Shown in pieces: positions 4,404 through 45,084 of a stretch of 64,000 nt of DNA. Numbering within the stretch: position 1 is the first letter of the stretch; each line of letters begins with the position of its first letter. The notes under the pieces are model-generated. The model did not search any database and was not told the DNA's origin. It worked only from the letters and a program-made list of their open reading frames with translations. Made by a program: the position numbers and the translations under genes. This DNA comes from a virus. Taxonomy: Duplodnaviria; Heunggongvirae; Uroviricota; Caudoviricetes. The DNA is taken from the IMG/VR virus record IMGVR_UViG_3300022555_000011, positions 19,381-83,380 of that record; one strand, 5' to 3'.

Positions 4404-4735
4404 AAGTTAAATTTTTTAATATTTTTAAGATTCTCAATTTTATCTTTATCTTTTATTGTAAATAATTTGGAAAGAACTTCATTTGATAATCTTCCATTAA
4501 ATCCAGTTAATTTAAATCTATCATATCCATATTTGTCTTTTTTAACTGTTTTTTTACTTCCTTTTTTAACAAATAATTTATCTCCACTAAGAGATAATTC
4601 TCTTGGACACATATATGGTTTTCTAATATAAATATTATGTTTAGCAATTAAAACATCGCCTGGCTCTACAAAATTAAAATCATCTTCAGTTGCTATATAA
4701 TGTTCCGATTCAAAATCTTCAAATAGTGTTATCAT
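4400..4735 (-). CDS. small hypothetical protein (leader + KFNL end)
   Basis: Starts MITLFEDFESE, ends KKFNL; 4-nt overlaps on both sides. Confidence 0.65.
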   Translation of the reverse strand: MITLFEDFESEHYIATEDDFNFVEPGDVLIAKHNIYIRKPYMCPRELSLSGDKLFVKKGSKKTVKKDKYGYDRFKLTGFNGRLSNEVLSKLFTIKDKDKIENLKNIKKFNL

Positions 4736-4983
4736 GGTTTAAAATTTGCAAAAGATTGTAAATTTTTTCTTTTATGTTTTTTGTCTTTTTTTAGATTTGG
4801 TGCTGATTTCATATATGCACCACTAATGGTTTGACCAATATCTCCACTTCCTGCAATAGAATCTGTCGCATTTACTGAGCCAGGAGTAGCAGAAGGTTGA
4901 GCAGCCACAACAGCGCCCATACCACCAGTGTTACCCATAGTTGCTGTAGCATCTTCTTTAATATATTCTTTAAATTTTTTCAT
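4732..4983 (-). CDS. Gly/Ala-rich small protein with MKKFKEYIKE leader
   Basis: Leader closely resembles T4 internal-protein MKTYQEFIAE; basic C-terminus. Confidence 0.65.
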   Translation of the reverse strand: MKKFKEYIKEDATATMGNTGGMGAVVAAQPSATPGSVNATDSIAGSGDIGQTISGAYMKSAPNLKKDKKHKRKNLQSFANFKP

Positions 4984-12439: not shown

Positions 12440-12487
12440 TGTGAGGATCTTTATTTTTTTCTATATATAAAAAAAACTAAATAGATT

Positions 12488-33355: not shown

Positions 33356-33619
33356 ATGGAATTTGAAGTAGAAGTAAAAGTAGTAGAAGAACCAATTATT
33401 AGTGATATAATAATGCCAGAGGAAAAACCTGATGAATTTATAGAATTTGATGAAGAACTGATCAAAGAGTTAGGTTATAAATCTTTAAGATATAGTATAA
33501 AAACATTTGATCACAGATTGATTTTGACTTCTGTAGATGACGAAGATATAGTTGTACCTAATGAATTGGTGGAAGATAAGTTGAAAGAATTATTGAATAT
33601 ACTACATAGTAAAAAATAA
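33356..33619 (+). CDS. 87-aa hypothetical protein, paralog of 34685-34948
   Basis: Starts MEFEVEVKVVEEPIIS. Confidence 0.7.
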   Translation: MEFEVEVKVVEEPIISDIIMPEEKPDEFIEFDEELIKELGYKSLRYSIKTFDHRLILTSVDDEDIVVPNELVEDKLKELLNILHSKK

Positions 33620-34684: not shown

Positions 34685-34948
34685 ATGGAATTTGAAGTAG
34701 AAGTAAAAGTAATAGAAGAGCCGATTATTAGTGAAATAATACTACCAGAGGAGCATCCTGATGTGATTATTGATTTTGATAATGAAATGTCTAAAGAATT
34801 AGGTTATAAATCTTTTAGATATAATGTAAATATATCTAATTATAGATTAATTTTTACAACGATTAATGACGAAGAAATAGTTGTGCCTAATGAACTTGTT
34901 GAAATAAAATTAAAAGAAGTTTTAGATATATTACATAGTAAGATGTAG
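34685..34948 (+). CDS. 87-aa hypothetical protein, paralog of 33356-33619
   Basis: Starts MEFEVEVKVIEEPIIS. Confidence 0.7.
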   Translation: MEFEVEVKVIEEPIISEIILPEEHPDVIIDFDNEMSKELGYKSFRYNVNISNYRLIFTTINDEEIVVPNELVEIKLKEVLDILHSKM

Positions 34949-35028
34949 AATTTTTATTAGATGTAATTATATAAATACACTTGTGTGGATTTTTTATTTT
35001 AAAAAAAAACTTTTAATAATAATTTAAT

Positions 35029-35043
35029 TATAATAACTTAGAA
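35029..35043 (+). promoter_or_regulatory. TATAATAACTTAGAA motif (copy 2), upstream of recA-N
   Basis: Identical to 33318-33332. Confidence 0.45.
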
Positions 35044-35072
35044 CAAATCTAAATAAAAATAATTAAACTAAT

Positions 35073-36041
35073 ATGGCAAAGACAACAAAACCATCACAAA
35101 AAAAATCAAATGATTTTGATTTCTCAAAAATATCTACACTTATAGAGAATATTTCAAAGAAAGATATAATTTCAATTGAAGATTTTGAGAAAGAAAAAAC
35201 ATTTATTTCAACAGGCATTCATATCGTAGATGCACTTTTATCAAAAAGTATTTTAAAAGGTGGAATACCTAATAACAAAATCACAATTATCGCTGGTCCA
35301 AAACAAACTGGTAAATCATTTATCTCTTTAAATATAGCAAGAAATGCACAAAAGATGGGGTATAATATTGTATGGATTGATACAGAATATTCTATTGAAA
35401 AAGCTGATTTTGATATGTATGGTATTGATACTTCAGACGCTAACAAATTTATGTTGATTAGAACTAATATCGTTGAGAAGATAAAAATGTTTATGATGTC
35501 GTTTTTAGATGCTTTGCAAAAATTAAAAGACACAGGAGTTGATGTGTCAAAAACTATATTCTTCTTAGATTCCATTGGTATGTTATCCAGTGAAAAGGAA
35601 AAAGAAGATACACTCAAATTGAATGTCAAACAAGATATGACACGTGCAAAACAAATCAAATCTCTTGTTAGACTTATTACAAATGATTTAGGATATTTGA
35701 ATATTCCATTAGTAGCAACAAACCACGTTTATTTATGTTTAACTGCTGGACATAAAGTAATAAAGGCTGATGGTAATTCAGAATTAATAGAGAATTTAAT
35801 GATAGGTGATTCTATACAAACATTAGAAGGAAATAAAACTATTGTAAAAACTGTTGAATATCCTAAAAGTCCAATAATTCAAATAACATTGGAAACTGGT
35901 GAGAAAATTAAATGCACTCCACAACATAGATTTTTAGTAAAACCTGATTGGGTTAGCGACGAAAATAATGATTGTTGGAAAAAGGCGGAAGATTTAACTG
36001 ATAAAGATATAATTTTAGCGGTTGATGAAACTATTAAATAA
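35073..36041 (+). CDS. recA: UvsX/RecA recombinase N-terminal fragment + split-intein N part (101 aa, 35736-36038)
   Basis: Walker A GPKQTGKS, WIDTE, FFLDSIG, VATNHVYL then CLTAGHKV...CTPQH (blocks A and B). Confidence 0.9.
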   Translation: MAKTTKPSQKKSNDFDFSKISTLIENISKKDIISIEDFEKEKTFISTGIHIVDALLSKSILKGGIPNNKITIIAGPKQTGKSFISLNIARNAQKMGYNIVWIDTEYSIEKADFDMYGIDTSDANKFMLIRTNIVEKIKMFMMSFLDALQKLKDTGVDVSKTIFFLDSIGMLSSEKEKEDTLKLNVKQDMTRAKQIKSLVRLITNDLGYLNIPLVATNHVYLCLTAGHKVIKADGNSELIENLMIGDSIQTLEGNKTIVKTVEYPKSPIIQITLETGEKIKCTPQHRFLVKPDWVSDENNDCWKKAEDLTDKDIILAVDETIK

Positions 36042-36099
36042 ACTTTATTAGTGGAAATAAACGAGTTTTTTATTTTTATATATAGAATAAAAAAAGATT

Positions 36100-37329
36100 A
36101 TGGAATTAATAGAAAAAATTAAAAATAGTAAAAGTATGTCTGGCATCATTAGAATGATTAATGGTGATGATAAATTAAATGATATTGTTATAGATAGAAC
36201 AAAGTATTTAAATGATGCTTCTATACATGAAAGGTTATTTAATATAAAAAATGATTTTTTTGATAATACTGTTTGTTCCATATGTAATGTAAGTTTTTTA
36301 GAATGGAATGTTAAATATAATAAATATAAAAATACTTGTTCTCATAAAGAATGTAAAACAAAATTTTTGATGATAAATAAAGATCCAGAGTCAGAAAAAT
36401 TAAGAAGAGAAAAAATAAGCGAAACACAAAAAAATAAAACTGAAGAAGAAAAACAAATAATTTTAGACAAGATTAAAAAAACAAATATTAAAAAATTTGG
36501 TAAAGATTCTTATGCAAAAACACAAAAATTTAAAAATGATATGATTGATAAATATGGATATATTAGTGCATTTGAATTGAAAGAAACCCATGATAAGTCA
36601 AAATTAACTTTACTTAAAAAATATAATTGTGATCACAATTCTAAGATAGATGAAGTGAAAAATAATAAAAAAATTACATATTTAAATAATTATGGTGTTG
36701 ATAACCCCACAAAATCTATAGTTGTAAAAGATAAAATTATAAAAACAAATAATGAAAAGTATGGTGGCAACTCACCTATGAATAATGATGAAGTGAAAGA
36801 AAAAGCAAGAGAAACATATCAATCAAATTATATTGATAATGAATTAAAAATGAATGAGTTGGTTTCCAGAAGAGAAGATACGATGTTTAAAAAGTATGGT
36901 GTTAATTATTGGATACAAGATAGTAAAAACTTAGATAAATTAGTTAAAAAAACAACTTATAAAAAATATCTTATACATGATAAAGAATATTTTTTGCAAG
37001 GATATGAAGATTGTGTTCTATTTGATATTTTATTAAAAAAGTATGATATTAATGATATTTGTATTTTTAATGATGATATAGAAAAATACACAGGTAAAAT
37101 ATATTATAGAGTTGAAAATAAAAAACACAAATATTATCCAGATTTTTATATAATAAGTGAGAATAAAATATATGAAGTTAAATCTGAATATACGTATAAT
37201 TCAGATATTATTATAAATACTCTAAAAAAAGATGCTTGCATTAATAACGGAATAGATTTTGAGTTTATTATATTGTCTAAAAAAGAATATAATAAATGGA
37301 AAAATAATAAAAATAATAAAAATATATGA
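36100..37329 (+). CDS. free-standing PD-(D/E)XK-type endonuclease inside fractured recA
   Basis: KYGVDNP-type repeats; C-terminal YYPDFYI...IYEVKS. Confidence 0.75.
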   Translation: MELIEKIKNSKSMSGIIRMINGDDKLNDIVIDRTKYLNDASIHERLFNIKNDFFDNTVCSICNVSFLEWNVKYNKYKNTCSHKECKTKFLMINKDPESEKLRREKISETQKNKTEEEKQIILDKIKKTNIKKFGKDSYAKTQKFKNDMIDKYGYISAFELKETHDKSKLTLLKKYNCDHNSKIDEVKNNKKITYLNNYGVDNPTKSIVVKDKIIKTNNEKYGGNSPMNNDEVKEKARETYQSNYIDNELKMNELVSRREDTMFKKYGVNYWIQDSKNLDKLVKKTTYKKYLIHDKEYFLQGYEDCVLFDILLKKYDINDICIFNDDIEKYTGKIYYRVENKKHKYYPDFYIISENKIYEVKSEYTYNSDIIINTLKKDACINNGIDFEFIILSKKEYNKWKNNKNNKNI

Positions 37330-38036
37330 AAAATTTTAAAGAAATTAGAGTATCTAAAGTAGAATATTTAGATGAATTAGAAACTACATATGATATTCAA
37401 GTAGAAGGTGTGCATCATTATATATTAGAAGGTGGTATAGTTTCGCATAATACTCAAGACATGTTTCCACAAACTATTATGTCTGGTGGTGAAGGTTTAT
37501 ATTATGCTGCTAGTGTTATTTTATTATTGAGTGACGCAAAATTAAAAACTGGTGAAGAAGATGAAATGGATCTTGGTAGATCAGGTTCAATTATCACCGC
37601 TCGTTCAGCAAAAAATAGATTGGCAAAACCAAAGAAAGTTAAATTTGAAATTGATCATAGTAAAGGTATTAACCCTTATAAGGGATTAGATTTATTCTGC
37701 ACTTTTGAAAATTTCCCTAAAATTGGTGTTGCTCAGGTTAAGAAAGAAGTTGACAAAGAGACTGGAGAAATTACATACAAACCTTCTAATCGTTGGTATG
37801 TTAGACATTTAGATAAAACATTATCAGCAAACCAAATTTTTAATAGAAAAGTTTTTAATCCAGAAGTATTAAAGGCTATGGAACCAATAATTTATGATTA
37901 TTTCAAATATCCATCATATGATGAGTGTCTTAGGGAATTGGAAGATATTGACGAGAGATTAAATGAAATTGAAGATAAGGATATGTTATCTTCAGAAGAA
38001 TTTAATCTTGAAGATGACGCAAATCTCTTCAATTAA
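37326..38036 (+). CDS. recA: split-intein C part (42 aa, 37326-37451) + UvsX/RecA C-terminal fragment
   Basis: TYDIQVEGVHHYILEGGIVSHN|TQDMFPQTIMSGGEGLYYAAS...KNR. Confidence 0.9.
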   Translation: MKNFKEIRVSKVEYLDELETTYDIQVEGVHHYILEGGIVSHNTQDMFPQTIMSGGEGLYYAASVILLLSDAKLKTGEEDEMDLGRSGSIITARSAKNRLAKPKKVKFEIDHSKGINPYKGLDLFCTFENFPKIGVAQVKKEVDKETGEITYKPSNRWYVRHLDKTLSANQIFNRKVFNPEVLKAMEPIIYDYFKYPSYDECLRELEDIDERLNEIEDKDMLSSEEFNLEDDANLFN

Positions 38037-38078
38037 GTTTGAAATTCGAACTTTTCCAAAAAATAATATAATACTCAT

Positions 38079-39425
38079 ATGTCGGAAGCGATGAATACGA
38101 ATATGGAAAAGCATTTCTTTATCTATATTTTAGATACACCAGATCAATTTTCCAAAGTAGAACCTTACTTTTTTAATAATTCAGATATACAGTTTGTTTA
38201 TACTGTAATCAGAGAAGAATATTTAAGAAGTGAGAGTCATATTGTACCAAGTACACAACAAATAGTAGCAATGGTCAAATTAGCTGATCAAGAAAATAAA
38301 ATAAGTAGTGCAGTTTTAAAAATACTACTTCAATCAGATAACGGTGATATAAGTCAAGAATGGTTGTTACCAAGATTTAAAGCTTGGAAAATTGAGAAAC
38401 AATTAAATGGTGATATGTTAAAAACCATTGATATGGTTCGAAATATTAAAGGCGAAATAAACTATGATACCGTGGTTGAAGTTGCTCAAAAAATAAAAGG
38501 AATTTTTGGTAATGTAATGATGGTTGATGATGATGACAGTGATTTAGGAGATGACTTTGACGATCCAGAATCACATAAACAGTTAATCAGTAAAAACAGC
38601 ATTCACACAGGCTGGCCTTGTATAGATTCAATATTAGGTGGTGGCTGGAGTAAATGCACATTAAATGTTATTATGGGTGAAACTAACGTTGGTAAATCAA
38701 TGTGGTTACACAATATTGCTACAAATGCAGCAAATGCTGGAGCTAATGTGTTAGTTATTACATTAGAAATGGCAACAAGAAAAGTAATGAAAAGATTGGG
38801 TTCTATGAGACTTAAAATTAATTCAGATGAATATGATGAAAAGTCAAAAGATGCAGTCTTTATGAAACAAAGATTAAATAATTTAAAATCTCAGGGATTT
38901 GGTGGCGGAGGATTGTTCGATTCTCAACCAGGCAAGATTTTTGTTAAAAAATACAATACAAGTGATTGTACTGTAACTGATATAGATAACTATATCAAAA
39001 AATTTGAAGAAGTTAAAAGGCTTAAAGTAGGAATGGTAATTGTGGATTATATAAATATTATGTCCATTGAAAAAGGCTTTGATATCACTAATATGCTTTA
39101 CTTAAAGGGAAAACACTTAGCAGAAGGCTTAAGAAGAATTGGAGATAAATATGAATGTGCAGTTGTTACTGCAACACAAACTGATAAAGCAGTTTGGGGA
39201 GCATCTGATATTAAATTGGGTGATATTCCTGAAAGTAAGGCTATTGCAGATACAGCAGACTCGGTTTGGGGTATTATTAGAAATCCAGAAATGAAACGTA
39301 ATAATATCTATAGATTAAAAATATTAAAATTAAGAGATGGTGAACACCATGAAGAACAAGTTAGATTTGATTTTAATACTAAATTTTTAACTATGGAAAA
39401 CGATCAATTGGTTGGTGCTAAATAA
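38079..39425 (+). CDS. dnaB: replicative DNA helicase (DnaB/T4 gp41-like)
   Basis: GETNVGKS, ITLEM, IVDYI, TATQ, LKLRDG motifs. Confidence 0.9.
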   Translation: MSEAMNTNMEKHFFIYILDTPDQFSKVEPYFFNNSDIQFVYTVIREEYLRSESHIVPSTQQIVAMVKLADQENKISSAVLKILLQSDNGDISQEWLLPRFKAWKIEKQLNGDMLKTIDMVRNIKGEINYDTVVEVAQKIKGIFGNVMMVDDDDSDLGDDFDDPESHKQLISKNSIHTGWPCIDSILGGGWSKCTLNVIMGETNVGKSMWLHNIATNAANAGANVLVITLEMATRKVMKRLGSMRLKINSDEYDEKSKDAVFMKQRLNNLKSQGFGGGGLFDSQPGKIFVKKYNTSDCTVTDIDNYIKKFEEVKRLKVGMVIVDYINIMSIEKGFDITNMLYLKGKHLAEGLRRIGDKYECAVVTATQTDKAVWGASDIKLGDIPESKAIADTADSVWGIIRNPEMKRNNIYRLKILKLRDGEHHEEQVRFDFNTKFLTMENDQLVGAK

Positions 39426-40144: not shown

Positions 40145-41008
40145 ATGGCTTTTTTTAAGAGAGACGAAGCATACTACGCATCATTAAAATATTTTAAGGG
40201 AGATACTTTAGCATCTGATGTATGGGTTAATAAATATGCGTTAAAAGACACAAAAAGTGGCGAGACTGTTTATTACGAACGTACGCCAGATGATATGCAT
40301 TGGAGACTTGCAAGAGAAATACATAGGATAGAAGCTAAATACCAAAATCCTTTATCAGAACAATTTTTATTTGATTTGATGAAAGATTTTAAGTATATAA
40401 TTCCACAAGGCTCTCCAATGTCAGGTATTGGAAATAATAGACAAGTTGTATCATTATCAAATTGTTTTGTTATAGGTAATCCTTCTGATTCATATGGTTC
40501 AATTATGCAAGTTGATGAAGAACAAATTCAACTTATGAAACGTAGAGGTGGTGTTGGACATGACCTTTCTCATATTAGACCTGCTGGAATGCCAGTTAAA
40601 AATTCAGCATTAACTTCAACAGGACTTGTACCTTTTATGAATAGATATTCTAATTCTACAAATGAAGTGGCTCAAGGTGGTAGGCGAGGCGCATTAATGT
40701 TAACTTGTTTTTCGCCTGATACATTTGTTCTTACAGATTATGGATGGGATCAAATAAAGAATGTTATAAATAAAATAAAATCTGGAATTGAAATTAAATC
40801 TTGGACACATGATGGGTTTAAGAATATTTTAGATATTCAAGAATTTAAAAATAGAGATGTTTATGAAATAGAATGTGAAAATGATAAGATCATAATTGTT
40901 ACTCCAGATCATGAATTTGTTGTAAGAAATATGAATTCAGGTGAGGAATATTTGAAGGCTATAATTGACGTAGATGTATTAATAGAAGAATTAATATTTT
41001 ATTTTTAA
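40145..41008 (+). CDS. nrdJ: class II ribonucleotide reductase N-terminal fragment + split-intein N part (100 aa, 40706-41005)
   Basis: SLSNCF, GGVGHDLS.IRP, RRGALMLT then CFSPDTFV...TPDH. Confidence 0.9.
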   Translation: MAFFKRDEAYYASLKYFKGDTLASDVWVNKYALKDTKSGETVYYERTPDDMHWRLAREIHRIEAKYQNPLSEQFLFDLMKDFKYIIPQGSPMSGIGNNRQVVSLSNCFVIGNPSDSYGSIMQVDEEQIQLMKRRGGVGHDLSHIRPAGMPVKNSALTSTGLVPFMNRYSNSTNEVAQGGRRGALMLTCFSPDTFVLTDYGWDQIKNVINKIKSGIEIKSWTHDGFKNILDIQEFKNRDVYEIECENDKIIIVTPDHEFVVRNMNSGEEYLKAIIDVDVLIEELIFYF

Positions 41009-41078
41009 TTTTATTTTCATTTTTCCAGTTTTTTTATTTTATATATACAAATAAAACATCCAGATGAAAATAAAATTA
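41006..41078 (+). promoter_or_regulatory. 15-bp hairpin sequestering the endonuclease ATG, TATATATAC between the arms
   Basis: taattttattttcat (41006-41020) pairs with ATGaaaataaaatta (41064-41078). Confidence 0.7.
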
Positions 41079-42053
41079 TTAAAAATTGAGGAGGACAGAA
41101 GAAGAATATTGTATAAAATAGATCAAGAAGAGTACATCATTAATGGTAAGATATTTAAAGTAAAAAAAAGCACTGCTAATCTTAGTAGTTATTTAAATTC
41201 TATTGATAGTTCATTAATTAAAATTTTAAATTTATCAGTAGATTGTAAATGTAAAAATTGTTTAGAGTATATTACTAGAAATAGATTTGAAAGAAATGTT
41301 TTTATTGCATATAAATTTTGCAATGAGTGTGATAAAAGAAATGTTTTGAATAAATATAATATTGTTAAGTGTATATGTTGTAATAAAGAAATTTTATATA
41401 AAGATATTAAATATTCTACTTGTGGAAATAAAAAATGTTTAGAAGAATATAGAAATATTATAAATAATAAAATAAAAGAAACACATTGGACTTTAAATGA
41501 TCACAAAAATGATATAACGATTAAAAAATCTATAAAAAGAAAAGAAAATGATATTAAATTTTGTAGAAAATATGTGGCTTGGAATAAAGATAAAACTGGA
41601 ATATATTCTAAAGAGACAATTGAAAAATTAAGAAATGCTGCCATTAATCAAATGAAAAATGGTAAAATTAAAAAAACAGGAATTGAGACAATTTTTGAAG
41701 AATTATTAAAATCTAATAATATTGATTATACATACTCGTTTATATATGAAAATAGGCAATTTGATTTTATTATAAAAGATTATAATATTGTTGTTGAAAT
41801 TCAGGGGGATTACTGGCATTCTAATCCTAAATTTTGGGATGTTTATGATAATGATAAAACAAAAAAGAAATTGTATGAGACTCAGATAATGAAAATAAAA
41901 GATGATGTAATTAAAAAGAATATTATAGAAAGATCAAAATATGATTTTGTTTCATTTTGGGAATATGATATTCATAATAATATTTCAGAAGTTGAAAAAA
42001 CTTTATTTGAATTAATTAATAAAAATAAAATTAAAAATGGAAAAAACTTATAG
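41064..42053 (+). CDS. free-standing Vsr/DUF559-like endonuclease inside fractured nrdJ
   Basis: Zn-ribbon N-terminus; IETIFEELL...FDFII...EIQGDYWH...FWEYDI. Confidence 0.78.
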   Translation: MKIKLLKIEEDRRRILYKIDQEEYIINGKIFKVKKSTANLSSYLNSIDSSLIKILNLSVDCKCKNCLEYITRNRFERNVFIAYKFCNECDKRNVLNKYNIVKCICCNKEILYKDIKYSTCGNKKCLEEYRNIINNKIKETHWTLNDHKNDITIKKSIKRKENDIKFCRKYVAWNKDKTGIYSKETIEKLRNAAINQMKNGKIKKTGIETIFEELLKSNNIDYTYSFIYENRQFDFIIKDYNIVVEIQGDYWHSNPKFWDVYDNDKTKKKLYETQIMKIKDDVIKKNIIERSKYDFVSFWEYDIHNNISEVEKTLFELINKNKIKNGKNL

Positions 42054-45000
42054 TAAAATACGTAAAATAACAAAAAAAGGTAAAAGTGATGTATATGATT
42101 TTACGGTGGAAGACACACATAGAATATTGGCAAATAATTTTTATACTTCAAATTGCTCCGTAAAACATCCAGATTCTGAAAGTTTTATTGATGCAAAATT
42201 AGAAGATGGTAAAGTAACTGGTGCAAATATTTCAGTTAAAATTGCAGATGACTTTATGGAAGCCGCATTAAATGCTAAAATGTACACACAATTATTTCCA
42301 ATAGATTCAAAAAATCCTATTCATACTAAAGAAATTGATGCTCAAAAATTGTGGAAGAAAATTATTCATAATGCCTGGAAATCTGCGGAGCCAGGTGTTT
42401 TATTTTGGGATACAGTAATGAGAGAATCTGTGCCAGATTGTTATCAAGATTATGGCTTTACAACAATTTCAACAAATCCTTGCATTATTGGTGATTCTTT
42501 AATTGCTGTTGCTGATGGTAGAAATGCAGTTTCTATAAGACAATTAACAGAAGAAGGTAAAGATATTCCAGTATATAGTACAAATAGTGAAGGTAAAATT
42601 GAAATAAAATGGGGTAGAAATCCTAGATTGACTGGAAAAAATAAAGAAGTATGGAAATTAACTTTAGATGATGATTCTGTTTTTGTCGCAACCCCAGATC
42701 ATAGAGTTTATTTGAATAATAATACATATAAAGAATTAAAAGATTTGTTACCAGGTGAATCAATATCATCTTTTTATTCTTTTAATTCTAATAAGGGATA
42801 TAGACAAATTGCACAAACTGGTGATAAAATGATCGGAGGTAGATATAGAAATAGAAGACAGTATAGACTTATTCATGAGTTTCATAAAGGTAAAGACATT
42901 GATTATAAATTGTTTAATATACATCATAAAGATTTCGATAATCAAAATGATATGATAGATAATTTAGAATTGATGACGAGAGATGATCATAAATTTTTAC
43001 ATTCTGGAAGAATTAAAGGTAAAAATAATCCATATTTTAGAATGACTGATGAATGGAAAGCTAATTTTGCTTCACATCCAGGAGAAAAGAATTCTAAATA
43101 TATTAATGTTTCTAATGATGAAATGATAATTCATGGTAGAGAATTATTTAAACAGGAAGGAAAATTTACAGCACGAGGATGGATTAAGTATTCAAAAGAA
43201 CATAATTTGCCACAATCATTATGGAACGAATTTAGATTTAAGACATTTGCAGATTTTAAAAACCAAGTAGTAAATAATCATAAAGTTGTGAGTGTTGAAT
43301 TTTTTGGATATGATGATGTATATAATATTACAGTTGATGATAATCACAATTATAATGTTATTACAAAAACTGAGGATGATAGATATATAACATCAGGTGG
43401 AATTTGCGTAAAAAATTGTGGAGAAATAACTCTTTGTCCTTATGATTCTTGTAGATTATTGGCTATAAACCTTTATAGTTTTGTAGATGAACCTTTTACA
43501 AAAAATGCAAAATTTAATTGGGATAAATTCAAGGAATATGTTGTTTATGCTGAAAGGATTATGGATGATATTATTGATCTTGAGATAGAAAAAATTAATA
43601 TGATCTTGGATAAAATTGCATCAGATCCAGAAAATGAAGAAACTAAAAGAGTTGAAAGAGAAACTTGGATTAAGATTATGAATATGACTTTAAATGGTCG
43701 TAGAACTGGTTTGGGTGTAACTGCTGAAGGTGATATGTTAGCTGCTCTTGGCTTAAGATATGGTACACCAGATGCAACAGATTTTTCAACAGAAGTTCAT
43801 AAAGTATTGGCGATAAATGCTTATAAATCATCTGCAATTATGGCAAAAGAACGTGGCTCATTCCCTATTTATGATTATGAAAGAGAAGTTAGTAATCCTT
43901 TTGTTCAAAGATTAAAAGATGCTGATCCAGAATTAGATATGATGTTAAAACAATATGGTAGAAGAAATATTGCACTTTTGACTATTGCACCAACAGGAAC
44001 AGTTTCACTAATGACACAAACAACTTCAGGTATCGAACCTGCATACTTGGTTTCTTATAGAAGAAGAAGAAAGATTAATCCTACTGATAAAGGTGGTAGA
44101 GTTGATTTTATAGATGCAGAAGGTGTAAAATGGGAAGAATATAATGTCTTTCATCATAAGTTTGAAGTTTGGTTAGAGGTTAACGGTTATAATATTGATG
44201 AAGTAAAAGCAATGAAAGATTCTGAATTAAAATTAATTATTGAAAAATCTCCATACTATAAAGCAACTTCTAATGATGTTGACTGGGTTGAAAAGGTTAG
44301 AATGCAAGGTATGATTCAAAAATATGTTGACCATTCTATTTCAGTAACAGTTAACTTGCCTAATAATGTAACTGAAGAAATTGTTTCTAAAGTATATGAA
44401 ATGGGCTGGAAGTCTGGATGTAAAGGTATGACAGTTTATCGTGATGGTTCTCGTCAAGGAGTTATTATGTCAAATGAAGGAACAACTCAAAATGTTGTTA
44501 AAGAAGTACAAGAGAACAACGCAAAACCAAGACCAAAAAGACTTGAATGTGAAGTTGTTAGATTTACTAATAATAAAGAAAAATGGGTTGGTGTTCTTGG
44601 ATTGATGGTTGATGAAAAAGGTCAAAAATATCCTTATGAGATATTCACTGGATTACTTGATGAATTTTATATTCCTCCTAGTATTGAAAAAGGTGAAATT
44701 ATTAAGCATAAAGAAGATGGTGAAAAAAGTAGATATGATTTTGTTTACAAGGACAAAGATGGTTATAATGTTACAATGGAAGGCTTAAATAGAGCTTTTA
44801 ACAGAGAATTTTGGAACACAAGTAAACTATTGTCAGCATTTTTAAGACATAGAATACACCTTCCTAGTGTGATTAATCTTATTGATAGTTTACAAATGAA
44901 TTTAGATAATGAAGCAGCTTTTGGTACTTGGAAATCTGGTGTGAAAAGAATTATTAAGAAATATATAAATTCTATCGTTGTTGGCGAATCTTGTCCAGAA

Positions 45001-45084
45001 TGTGGAGCTACAGGACATGATTTAGTGTATGAAAATGGCTGTAAGACTTGTAAGGCGTGCGGTTGGGCGAAATGTTCAGATTAA
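42037..45084 (+). CDS. nrdJ: split-intein C part (39 aa) + class II RNR C-terminal fragment containing a second intein
   Basis: VYDFTVEDTHRILANNFYTSN|CSVKHPD; NP|intein|CGE; RRTGLG, IAPTGT; C-terminal Zn ribbon. Confidence 0.92.
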   Translation: MEKTYSKIRKITKKGKSDVYDFTVEDTHRILANNFYTSNCSVKHPDSESFIDAKLEDGKVTGANISVKIADDFMEAALNAKMYTQLFPIDSKNPIHTKEIDAQKLWKKIIHNAWKSAEPGVLFWDTVMRESVPDCYQDYGFTTISTNPCIIGDSLIAVADGRNAVSIRQLTEEGKDIPVYSTNSEGKIEIKWGRNPRLTGKNKEVWKLTLDDDSVFVATPDHRVYLNNNTYKELKDLLPGESISSFYSFNSNKGYRQIAQTGDKMIGGRYRNRRQYRLIHEFHKGKDIDYKLFNIHHKDFDNQNDMIDNLELMTRDDHKFLHSGRIKGKNNPYFRMTDEWKANFASHPGEKNSKYINVSNDEMIIHGRELFKQEGKFTARGWIKYSKEHNLPQSLWNEFRFKTFADFKNQVVNNHKVVSVEFFGYDDVYNITVDDNHNYNVITKTEDDRYITSGGICVKNCGEITLCPYDSCRLLAINLYSFVDEPFTKNAKFNWDKFKEYVVYAERIMDDIIDLEIEKINMILDKIASDPENEETKRVERETWIKIMNMTLNGRRTGLGVTAEGDMLAALGLRYGTPDATDFSTEVHKVLAINAYKSSAIMAKERGSFPIYDYEREVSNPFVQRLKDADPELDMMLKQYGRRNIALLTIAPTGTVSLMTQTTSGIEPAYLVSYRRRRKINPTDKGGRVDFIDAEGVKWEEYNVFHHKFEVWLEVNGYNIDEVKAMKDSELKLIIEKSPYYKATSNDVDWVEKVRMQGMIQKYVDHSISVTVNLPNNVTEEIVSKVYEMGWKSGCKGMTVYRDGSRQGVIMSNEGTTQNVVKEVQENNAKPRPKRLECEVVRFTNNKEKWVGVLGLMVDEKGQKYPYEIFTGLLDEFYIPPSIEKGEIIKHKEDGEKSRYDFVYKDKDGYNVTMEGLNRAFNREFWNTSKLLSAFLRHRIHLPSVINLIDSLQMNLDNEAAFGTWKSGVKRIIKKYINSIVVGESCPECGATGHDLVYENGCKTCKACGWAKCSD
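42481..43416 (+). mobile_element. contiguous intein (312 aa) with HNH endonuclease at the RNR catalytic NP|CGE site
   Basis: Starts CIIGDSLI; TPDH; IHHKDFDNQNDMIDNL; ends VYNITVDDNHN...CVKN|C. Confidence 0.9.

Follow-up and report, generated by a model that had tools for sequence, protein, structure and literature searches.

Here we describe a fractured uvsX gene, coding for a phage recombinase of the UvsX/RecA type, in a 64,000-nucleotide stretch of viral DNA (hereafter the window), which corresponds to bases 19381-83380 of a 147-kb IMG/VR virus record. The locus consists of three open reading frames (ORFs) on the plus strand. The first, uvsX-N (35073-36041), codes for 322 aa followed by a stop and fuses the N-terminal part of the recombinase (N-extein) to the N-terminal half of an intein (IntN); its product matches the UvsX-like recombinase profile phrog_97 over residues 1-220 (6.4e-47) as well as the Pfam profiles RecA, KaiC-ATPase and Intein_splicing. 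The N-extein covers residues 1-221 (35073-35735), bears the Walker A motif GPKQTGKS, ends in NHVYL and matches the UvsX chains 9GBG (1.4e-25), 7Z3M and 3IO5. The IntN of 101 aa (35736-36038) starts with CLTAGH, where Cys1 is encoded by 35736-35738 and block B (T61-P-Q-H64) by 35916-35927, and gives Pfam Intein_splicing and Hint matches. A spacer of 58 nt (36042-36099) separates uvsX-N from a free-standing gene for a 409-aa endonuclease (36100-37329), after which comes uvsX-C (37326-38036; 236 aa and a stop). In uvsX-C, a C-terminal intein half (IntC) of 42 aa (37326-37451), ending in IVSHN and comprising block F (YDIQVEGVHHY) and block G (H41-N42, 37446-37451), is fused to a C-extein of 194 aa (37452-38033). 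The sequence right after IntC is TQDMFPQTIMSGG; the C-extein starts with Thr+1 (37452-37454), reads TQDMFPQTIMSGGEG... and directly adjoins the N-extein in intein-free alleles. The uvsX-C product matches 3IO5 from YETQEMF on (1.1e-8).

The two halves of the intein thus reside on two genes, with a TAA (36039-36041) closing IntN and an ATG at 37326 opening IntC. The stop codon TGA of the nuclease gene overlaps the ATG of uvsX-C as ATGA, the nuclease ORF being in a different reading frame, and neither frameshifts nor internal stops are present in the ORFs. The original prediction, made from the letters of the window, had called a fractured UvsX gene, and its three ORFs were found at exactly the coordinates given there; the 101-aa tail after VATNHVYL, the 42-aa IntC ending in SHN and the 409-aa endonuclease between the halves could all be read as described. 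A split-intein uvsX at this locus is real and far beyond what chance would produce.

The record has a G+C content of about 25% and an estimated completeness (CheckV) of about 21%. The nearest relatives of its UvsX, at 61% identity, are encoded by the 735-kb "uncultured phage" records LR756501 and LR756503, with other huge phages being more distant, and near-identical DNA is present in freshwater and lake metagenomes from several studies. Because of the kinship of its UvsX to huge phages and of this occurrence, we regard the record as a fragment of a huge freshwater phage.

The evidence for the position of the intein comes from relatives in which the gene is whole. In solved UvsX structures, the ranges matched by the two extein parts adjoin each other, and the N-extein is 81-96% identical to the uvsX product of 22 IMG/VR contigs. 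A scan of IMG/VR yielded 23 related loci, in 17 of which the exteins abut base for base with no insert; in these 17 intein-free contigs the junction reads NH[VIT]YL|[TS]QDMF, which is the sequence predicted for the spliced protein, with Thr or Ser at the +1 position. In GenBank, uvsX is likewise in one piece in three huge phages of more distant kinship, where NHTYL precedes TQDLF, SMDLF or SLDLY. An intein-free allele aligns with T4 UvsX (3IO5) over residues 46-363 (1.1e-33) and shows no gap through NHVYLTQDMF/NHTYETQEMF, which bears out the earlier proposal that the junction falls at the DNA-binding loop L2; the same allele aligns without a gap to E. coli RecA through NQIRMKIGVMF in the L2 region. 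The hallmarks of the UvsX/RecA family are thus all present, namely the RecA-fold ATPase, the Walker A motif and the NH/Q switch residue in NHVYL before L2. From the offset of the 3IO5 construct and the known His195 we take the intein site to be E198|T199 in T4 numbering, and the His just before it presumably corresponds to the Gln194 switch of RecA. Since L2 of T4 UvsX spans residues 198-211 (PMC10144138), the alignment places the intein site at the N-terminal edge of this loop.

The residues typical of class-1 inteins are all present, and the sizes of the two halves (101 and 42 aa) match canonically split inteins. The Pfam Intein_splicing profile is 155 positions long and has a cut-off of 35.8 bits: IntN scores 37.3 bits over profile positions 35-94 (E 2.9e-9), and IntC scores 20.8 bits over positions 121-155 (E 3.5e-4). 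The latter score falls short of the cut-off, which is no surprise for a piece of 42 aa. Cys1, TPxH, HN and Thr+1 are invariant across six intein alleles, although the IntN identity falls to 69%, and ...IVSHN|T occurs in all of them. A one-piece allele (L027, see below) weakly matches solved mini-inteins, including gp41-1 (1.2e-3) and DnaE. When the complex of IntN and IntC was predicted, the interaction prediction score from aligned errors (ipSAE) reached 0.61 versus 0.00 for the best control, a mark that 51 of the 78 solved complexes and 2 of the 108 mismatches also attained; at least 92% of contacts agreed between runs, and the predicted local distance difference test score (pLDDT) of the partners was at least 68. 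As structures of split-intein complexes have already been solved, this result may only reflect likeness to them.

The product of the middle gene belongs to the Pfam family DUF7487 (2.6e-34; 119.5 bits vs. a cut-off of 27) and also matches phrog_3339, annotated as "homing endonuclease" (6.8e-12). It comprises a CxxC...C...C cluster (residues 59-85), seven helical "KYG" repeats of about 23 aa (residues ~115-270) and a C-terminal PD-(D/E)xK nuclease domain (residues ~268-409; 36901-37326). The catalytic set, E303 (37006-37008), P347-D348 (D348 at 37141-37143) and E359-V-K361 (37174-37176 and 37180-37182 for E359 and K361), is conserved: across the 49 homologues compared, D348 and E359 never vary, conservation of E303 and K361 is 90% or higher, and Cys 59, 62, 80 and 85 are nearly invariant. 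The AlphaFold2 model of the protein has a mean pLDDT of 92.6, and its residues ~268-409 adopt a restriction-endonuclease-like fold resembling TnsA (Z 7.8, root-mean-square deviation 4.5, 136 aligned residues), Vsr (Z 5.9) and I-Bth0305I (3R3P, Z 5.3). A Foldseek search against the PDB and Swiss-Prot models gave weak rows only, all of them PD-(D/E)xK nucleases, and a search of the sequence against solved structures returned only noise at E up to 1. The seven repeats stand in tandem between the Cys cluster and the nuclease domain, each ending in a KYG-like turn, with spacings of 19, 23, 23, 23, 22 and 23 residues. The array alone found no convincing solved counterpart (best Z 5.2 over 42 residues); one weak row is the STPR DNA-binding domain, also built of 23-residue repeats (Z 4.4). 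In the ESM Atlas, every cluster that has this fold comes from viruses, namely tailed phages and giant viruses, and in some DUF7487 clusters 11-14% of the members also match DUF559 or Vsr profiles. We tentatively put forward, as a possibility well short of an even chance, that DUF7487 is an unrecognised structural family of homing endonucleases, in which a PD-(D/E)xK domain would be aimed by the Cys cluster and by seven repeats reading the DNA repeat by repeat.

The nuclease homologues at 61% and 41% identity (P0012 and P0045) are again found between an ORF with RecA_N and intein matches and an IntC ORF, and a homologue at 32% identity (P0065) is free-standing among tail genes. This distribution suggests that one sub-clade of a broad phage nuclease family specialises on this uvsX intein. 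Two further DUF7487 genes were noticed beside uvsX and outside it, in a position that recalls T4 segA next to uvsX: one just downstream of uvsX-C in phage Lak-B5 (L036, 6539-7759), and the other, with a 542-aa product, just upstream of uvsX-N in an ENA contig (L037, 332-1960).

We consider it likely, with good confidence, that the locus represents a uvsX gene fractured by a trans-splicing intein together with a DUF7487 homing nuclease. A canonical class-1 mini-intein is inserted between Leu221 and Thr222 of UvsX, at the N-terminal edge of L2, and a free-standing gene for a putative homing endonuclease splits this intein between blocks B and F, at the usual point of endonuclease insertion. The N-extein-IntN (322 aa) and IntC-C-extein (236 aa) proteins would associate via their intein halves, and trans-splicing would give a 415-residue UvsX with the native junction NHVYL-TQDMF. 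In this way uvsX is probably repaired by protein splicing, and the split-intein gene is very probably functional. The nuclease would most likely cut the intein-free uvsX of co-infecting relatives near the intein site, whereupon repair would copy the whole cassette into the cut allele, i.e., homing. The nuclease gene also appears to carry a promoter-like motif of its own. Because its stop codon overlaps the start of uvsX-C, translation of uvsX-C may be coupled to that of the nuclease gene, and through the same overlap the timing of recombinase assembly may hinge on nuclease expression. This link in timing is a weaker idea than that of DUF7487 as an unrecognised family of homing endonucleases.

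The related loci form an allelic series. The site is empty in most of them. In L027 a one-piece mini-intein of ~142 residues lies within a single frame of 572 aa; a split intein with a nuclease gene is present in the window, L010, L021 and L022; and in L015 the intein is split, the nuclease gene being reduced to a 59-aa remnant. L010 has an extra 128-aa ORF (4454-4837) between IntN and the conserved 5′ element of the nuclease gene. On the extein tree, built by maximum likelihood, five changes are required to account for the five alleles with the intein, and their grouping in a single clade was rejected by the approximately unbiased (AU) test (p = 1.9e-52). The filled allele L021 differs from the empty L023 and L025 by about 5%, as much as the latter two differ from each other. 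Purifying selection on all parts is indicated by the ratio of nonsynonymous to synonymous substitution rates (dN/dS), with values of 0.06-0.33 in the intein, 0.24-0.38 in the nuclease and 0.06-0.18 in the exteins. Between the window and L010, synonymous divergence amounts to 0.30 in the intein, 0.38 in the nuclease and 0.95 in the exteins; judged from these sequences, the lower values for the intein and nuclease fit a transfer of the cassette between uvsX genes that had already diverged. In one lake metagenome run (X6), 35735 and 37455 are linked on a contig by nothing more than ACA (Thr), and further contigs of that run span IntN and the nuclease gene, so that filled and empty alleles coexist in a single lake metagenome.

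Several points weigh against the interpretation as a spliced and mobile element. A co-conversion tract around the junction was not seen, identity to all relatives forming a flat mosaic of 78-88%; as DNA identity to the nearest empty allele reaches only 88%, no recent homing event was caught. The fold matches of the nuclease domain are middling (best Z 7.8), and the literature searched holds no characterised DUF7487 member. Each intein half has a net negative charge (-5 and -4), so that the pair is without the charge complementarity of some fast split inteins. The hairpin before the nuclease start is no better than that of shuffled sequences (z = -1.79), with one covarying pair. Among the public runs listed as carrying the DNA of the locus there is no RNA run. 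Finally, as the record covers only ~21% of the estimated genome, a second recombinase gene may lie elsewhere.

The alternative that survives best, though we hold it to be unlikely, is that the intein splices but the nuclease is no longer active in homing, either decaying or serving another role, e.g., by supplying uvsX-C with its promoter and start context; in that case the patchiness of the cassette would stem from precise losses that occurred repeatedly, and not from homing that still goes on. It agrees with the missing homing tract, with the mere remnant kept by L015 and with the lack of a nuclease gene in L027. The unrooted intein tree explains the one-piece allele equally well by one gain or one loss, and the direction with respect to the split alleles may be either way. 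On the other hand, the nuclease in the window is of full length with all the conserved catalytic and Cys residues present, it is under the purifying selection noted above (dN/dS 0.24-0.38), and its orthologues remain linked to a fractured uvsX down to 41% identity. As for repeated loss, inteins are seldom removed precisely from DNA, whereas the extein tree demands at least four changes.

It is considerably less probable that the intein halves only hold the UvsX pieces together as a non-covalent heterodimer with no splicing. A fragmented enzyme that assembles in this manner is documented, namely NrdA of Aeromonas phage Aeh1, split by a homing endonuclease gene (PMC3045599), and the predicted IntN/IntC complex speaks for association, not for chemistry. 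Such a heterodimer would, however, hardly account for the invariance of Cys1, TPxH, HN and Thr+1 across diverged alleles, and a break in L2 would leave an unspliced domain of 143 residues on the DNA-binding face. Moreover, the one-piece L027, with its 572-aa frame, could give UvsX by splicing only.

We regard as very improbable that uvsX is simply broken and the phage uses another recombinase. The small share of the genome in the record leaves room for such a gene, but no second uvsX was found in the 147 kb, the reading frames are intact, and the exteins of the intein-bearing alleles are under equally strong purifying selection (dN/dS 0.06-0.18). An assembly artefact, or an intron removed at the RNA level, is scarcely credible: the same arrangement recurs on contigs that are independent of each other and stem from several samples and sources (L010, L021, L022, L037 and L039) and in lake metagenomes of several studies, and a search of 34900-38200 gave no match to a group I intron or any other Rfam family at E up to 1. 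The more distant fractured uvsX locus of L039 (4468-5625) has a downstream gene of 385 aa vs. 236 aa here, possibly owing to an additional domain or another insert.

The 58-nt spacer upstream of the nuclease gene holds TTTATATATAG (36075-36085) within a weak A/U hairpin. It is conserved in L010, L021 and L022, even with a nuclease protein only 58% identical, and thus travels with the nuclease gene. The element TTTATATATAG occurs 9 times in the window vs. 1.3 expected, each time a few to ~20 bases upstream of an ORF start. The motif TTTATATATA[AG] stands at window positions 12461, 17112, 32778, 36075, 45127, 50436, 60631 and 62367, shortly before many ORF starts, among them those of nuclease genes in two or more fractured genes, and probably marks a class of phage promoters. 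T4 late promoters and the elements reported in PMC2677866 offer an analogy, from which we take TTTATATATAG to be a probable promoter of a type proper to the phage itself. Promoters of the sigma-70 type showed no excess over chance expectation. We also considered a hairpin that sequesters the start codon of the nuclease gene and rejected it, its fold being no better than shuffles.

Besides uvsX, the window holds two further fractured genes. The second fractured gene (40145-45084) encodes a ribonucleotide reductase (RNR): the N-terminal part of RNR with an IntN (40145-41008) is followed by a 329-aa ORF with a weak Vsr match (41064-42053) and by a 1015-aa ORF (42037-45084), which encodes an IntC, the remainder of RNR and a complete intein that contains an HNH. 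Kinship between the uvsX nuclease and the nuclease of the fractured RNR was ruled out (E 1.8). The gp41-like helicase gene adjoining uvsX (38079-39425) is uninterrupted (GETNVGKSMWLHN). In relatives it is fractured inside the P-loop by an atypically split intein, with an IntN of ~33 aa and an IntC of ~117 aa; a gene for a 372-aa Vsr-like nuclease lies between the helicase halves in L012 (6298-9267), and none in L020 (6284-8211). Upstream of uvsX, two paralogous 87-aa ORFs (33356-33619 and 34685-34948; MEFEVEVKV...ILHSK) flank an ORF of 178 aa.

The lake-phage contigs provide a natural series on intein splitting, comprising empty, one-piece, split with an intact nuclease, and split with a decayed nuclease. 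The locus links the virus-only family DUF7487 to intein homing. For applications, it supplies a canonically split intein pair (Cys1/Thr+1) and a nuclease that is a candidate for site-specific cleavage. The understanding of split inteins as such is unchanged by the finding.

The layout of the locus is of a known kind. Fractured genes have been described since 2009, when Dassa, London, Stoddard, Schueler-Furman and Pietrokovski reported fractured gp41, IMPDH, DnaE, NrdA, NrdJ, ligase and terminase loci from ocean metagenomes (PMC2677866). As in the uvsX locus, the 3′ end of the endonuclease gene overlaps the downstream half in those loci, a promoter-like element lies in the 5′ region (hairpin-prone in those loci), the carriers are mainly phages, and endonuclease-less alleles exist. 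In contrast to that work, uvsX is the host gene here, not being among the hosts listed there and figuring only as a neighbouring ORF; the carrier is a huge freshwater phage, and the endonuclease belongs to DUF7487 with a canonical PD...ExK, being not of the GIY-YIG type and probably not Vsr-like in the sense of I-Bth0305I (no sequence match to solved nucleases at E up to 1, and a structural Z of only 5.3 to 3R3P).

Fractured uvsX genes are themselves already in GenBank, in Yersinia phage vB_YenM_TG1 (NC_028820) and in Lak-B phages such as Prevotella phage Lak-B5 (MK250024, where TAG is read as Q). TG1 has the same succession of uvsX-N with IntN (gp044), a nuclease gene (gp043) and IntC with uvsX-C (gp042), including an overlap of the ATGA type, and Lak-B5 shares the three-gene layout; in both the intein lies in L2. 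The site in these two phages is, however, 14 residues downstream, at the C-terminal end of L2 (...IMGGG|C...HN|TGILYS in TG1 and ...QAMG|C...HN|SGIVY in Lak-B5). The middle gene also differs, encoding a GIY-YIG nuclease in TG1 and an unrelated 463-aa ORF in Lak-B5, and the IntN of their fractured uvsX genes is only ~30% identical to that of the window. The start of L2 is thus a further intein insertion site in phage UvsX beside that at its end, in agreement with the rule by which inteins settle in functional motifs of the highest conservation. The split intein VidaL is reportedly catalogued under a UvsX host, for which the literature searched gave no confirmation. In the literature searched we found no description of a UvsX split intein at the present site, of the TG1 arrangement or of DUF7487.

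The original prediction had pointed out that the element sits in the very enzyme on which its homing relies. This holds for its position; the idea as such is not new, since RecA inteins, a recA intron and the pair of SegA and uvsX have all been published. RecA inteins number 56 in bacteria, e.g., in Mycobacterium tuberculosis (PMC4760082), the homing endonuclease I-Bth0305I is carried by a recA group I intron (PMC3239194), and T4 SegA cuts uvsX, its homing being dependent on UvsX (PMC2988022). The RecA inteins and the recA intron resemble the present element as self-splicing mobile elements that, together with a homing endonuclease, occupy a recombinase needed for homing; they differ in being one-piece inteins with an internal LAGLIDADG or an RNA intron, whereas the present intein is split, its endonuclease being encoded by a gene of its own. 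With Npu DnaE and gp41-1 (4KL5, 6QAZ) the uvsX intein shares the split position, an IntN of ~100 aa, an IntC of ~40 aa and Cys1; in contrast to them, its +1 residue is Thr and not Cys or Ser, both its halves are net acidic, and the sequence similarity is low. What is new in comparison with all these systems is the insertion site at the start of L2 and the associated nuclease family, DUF7487.

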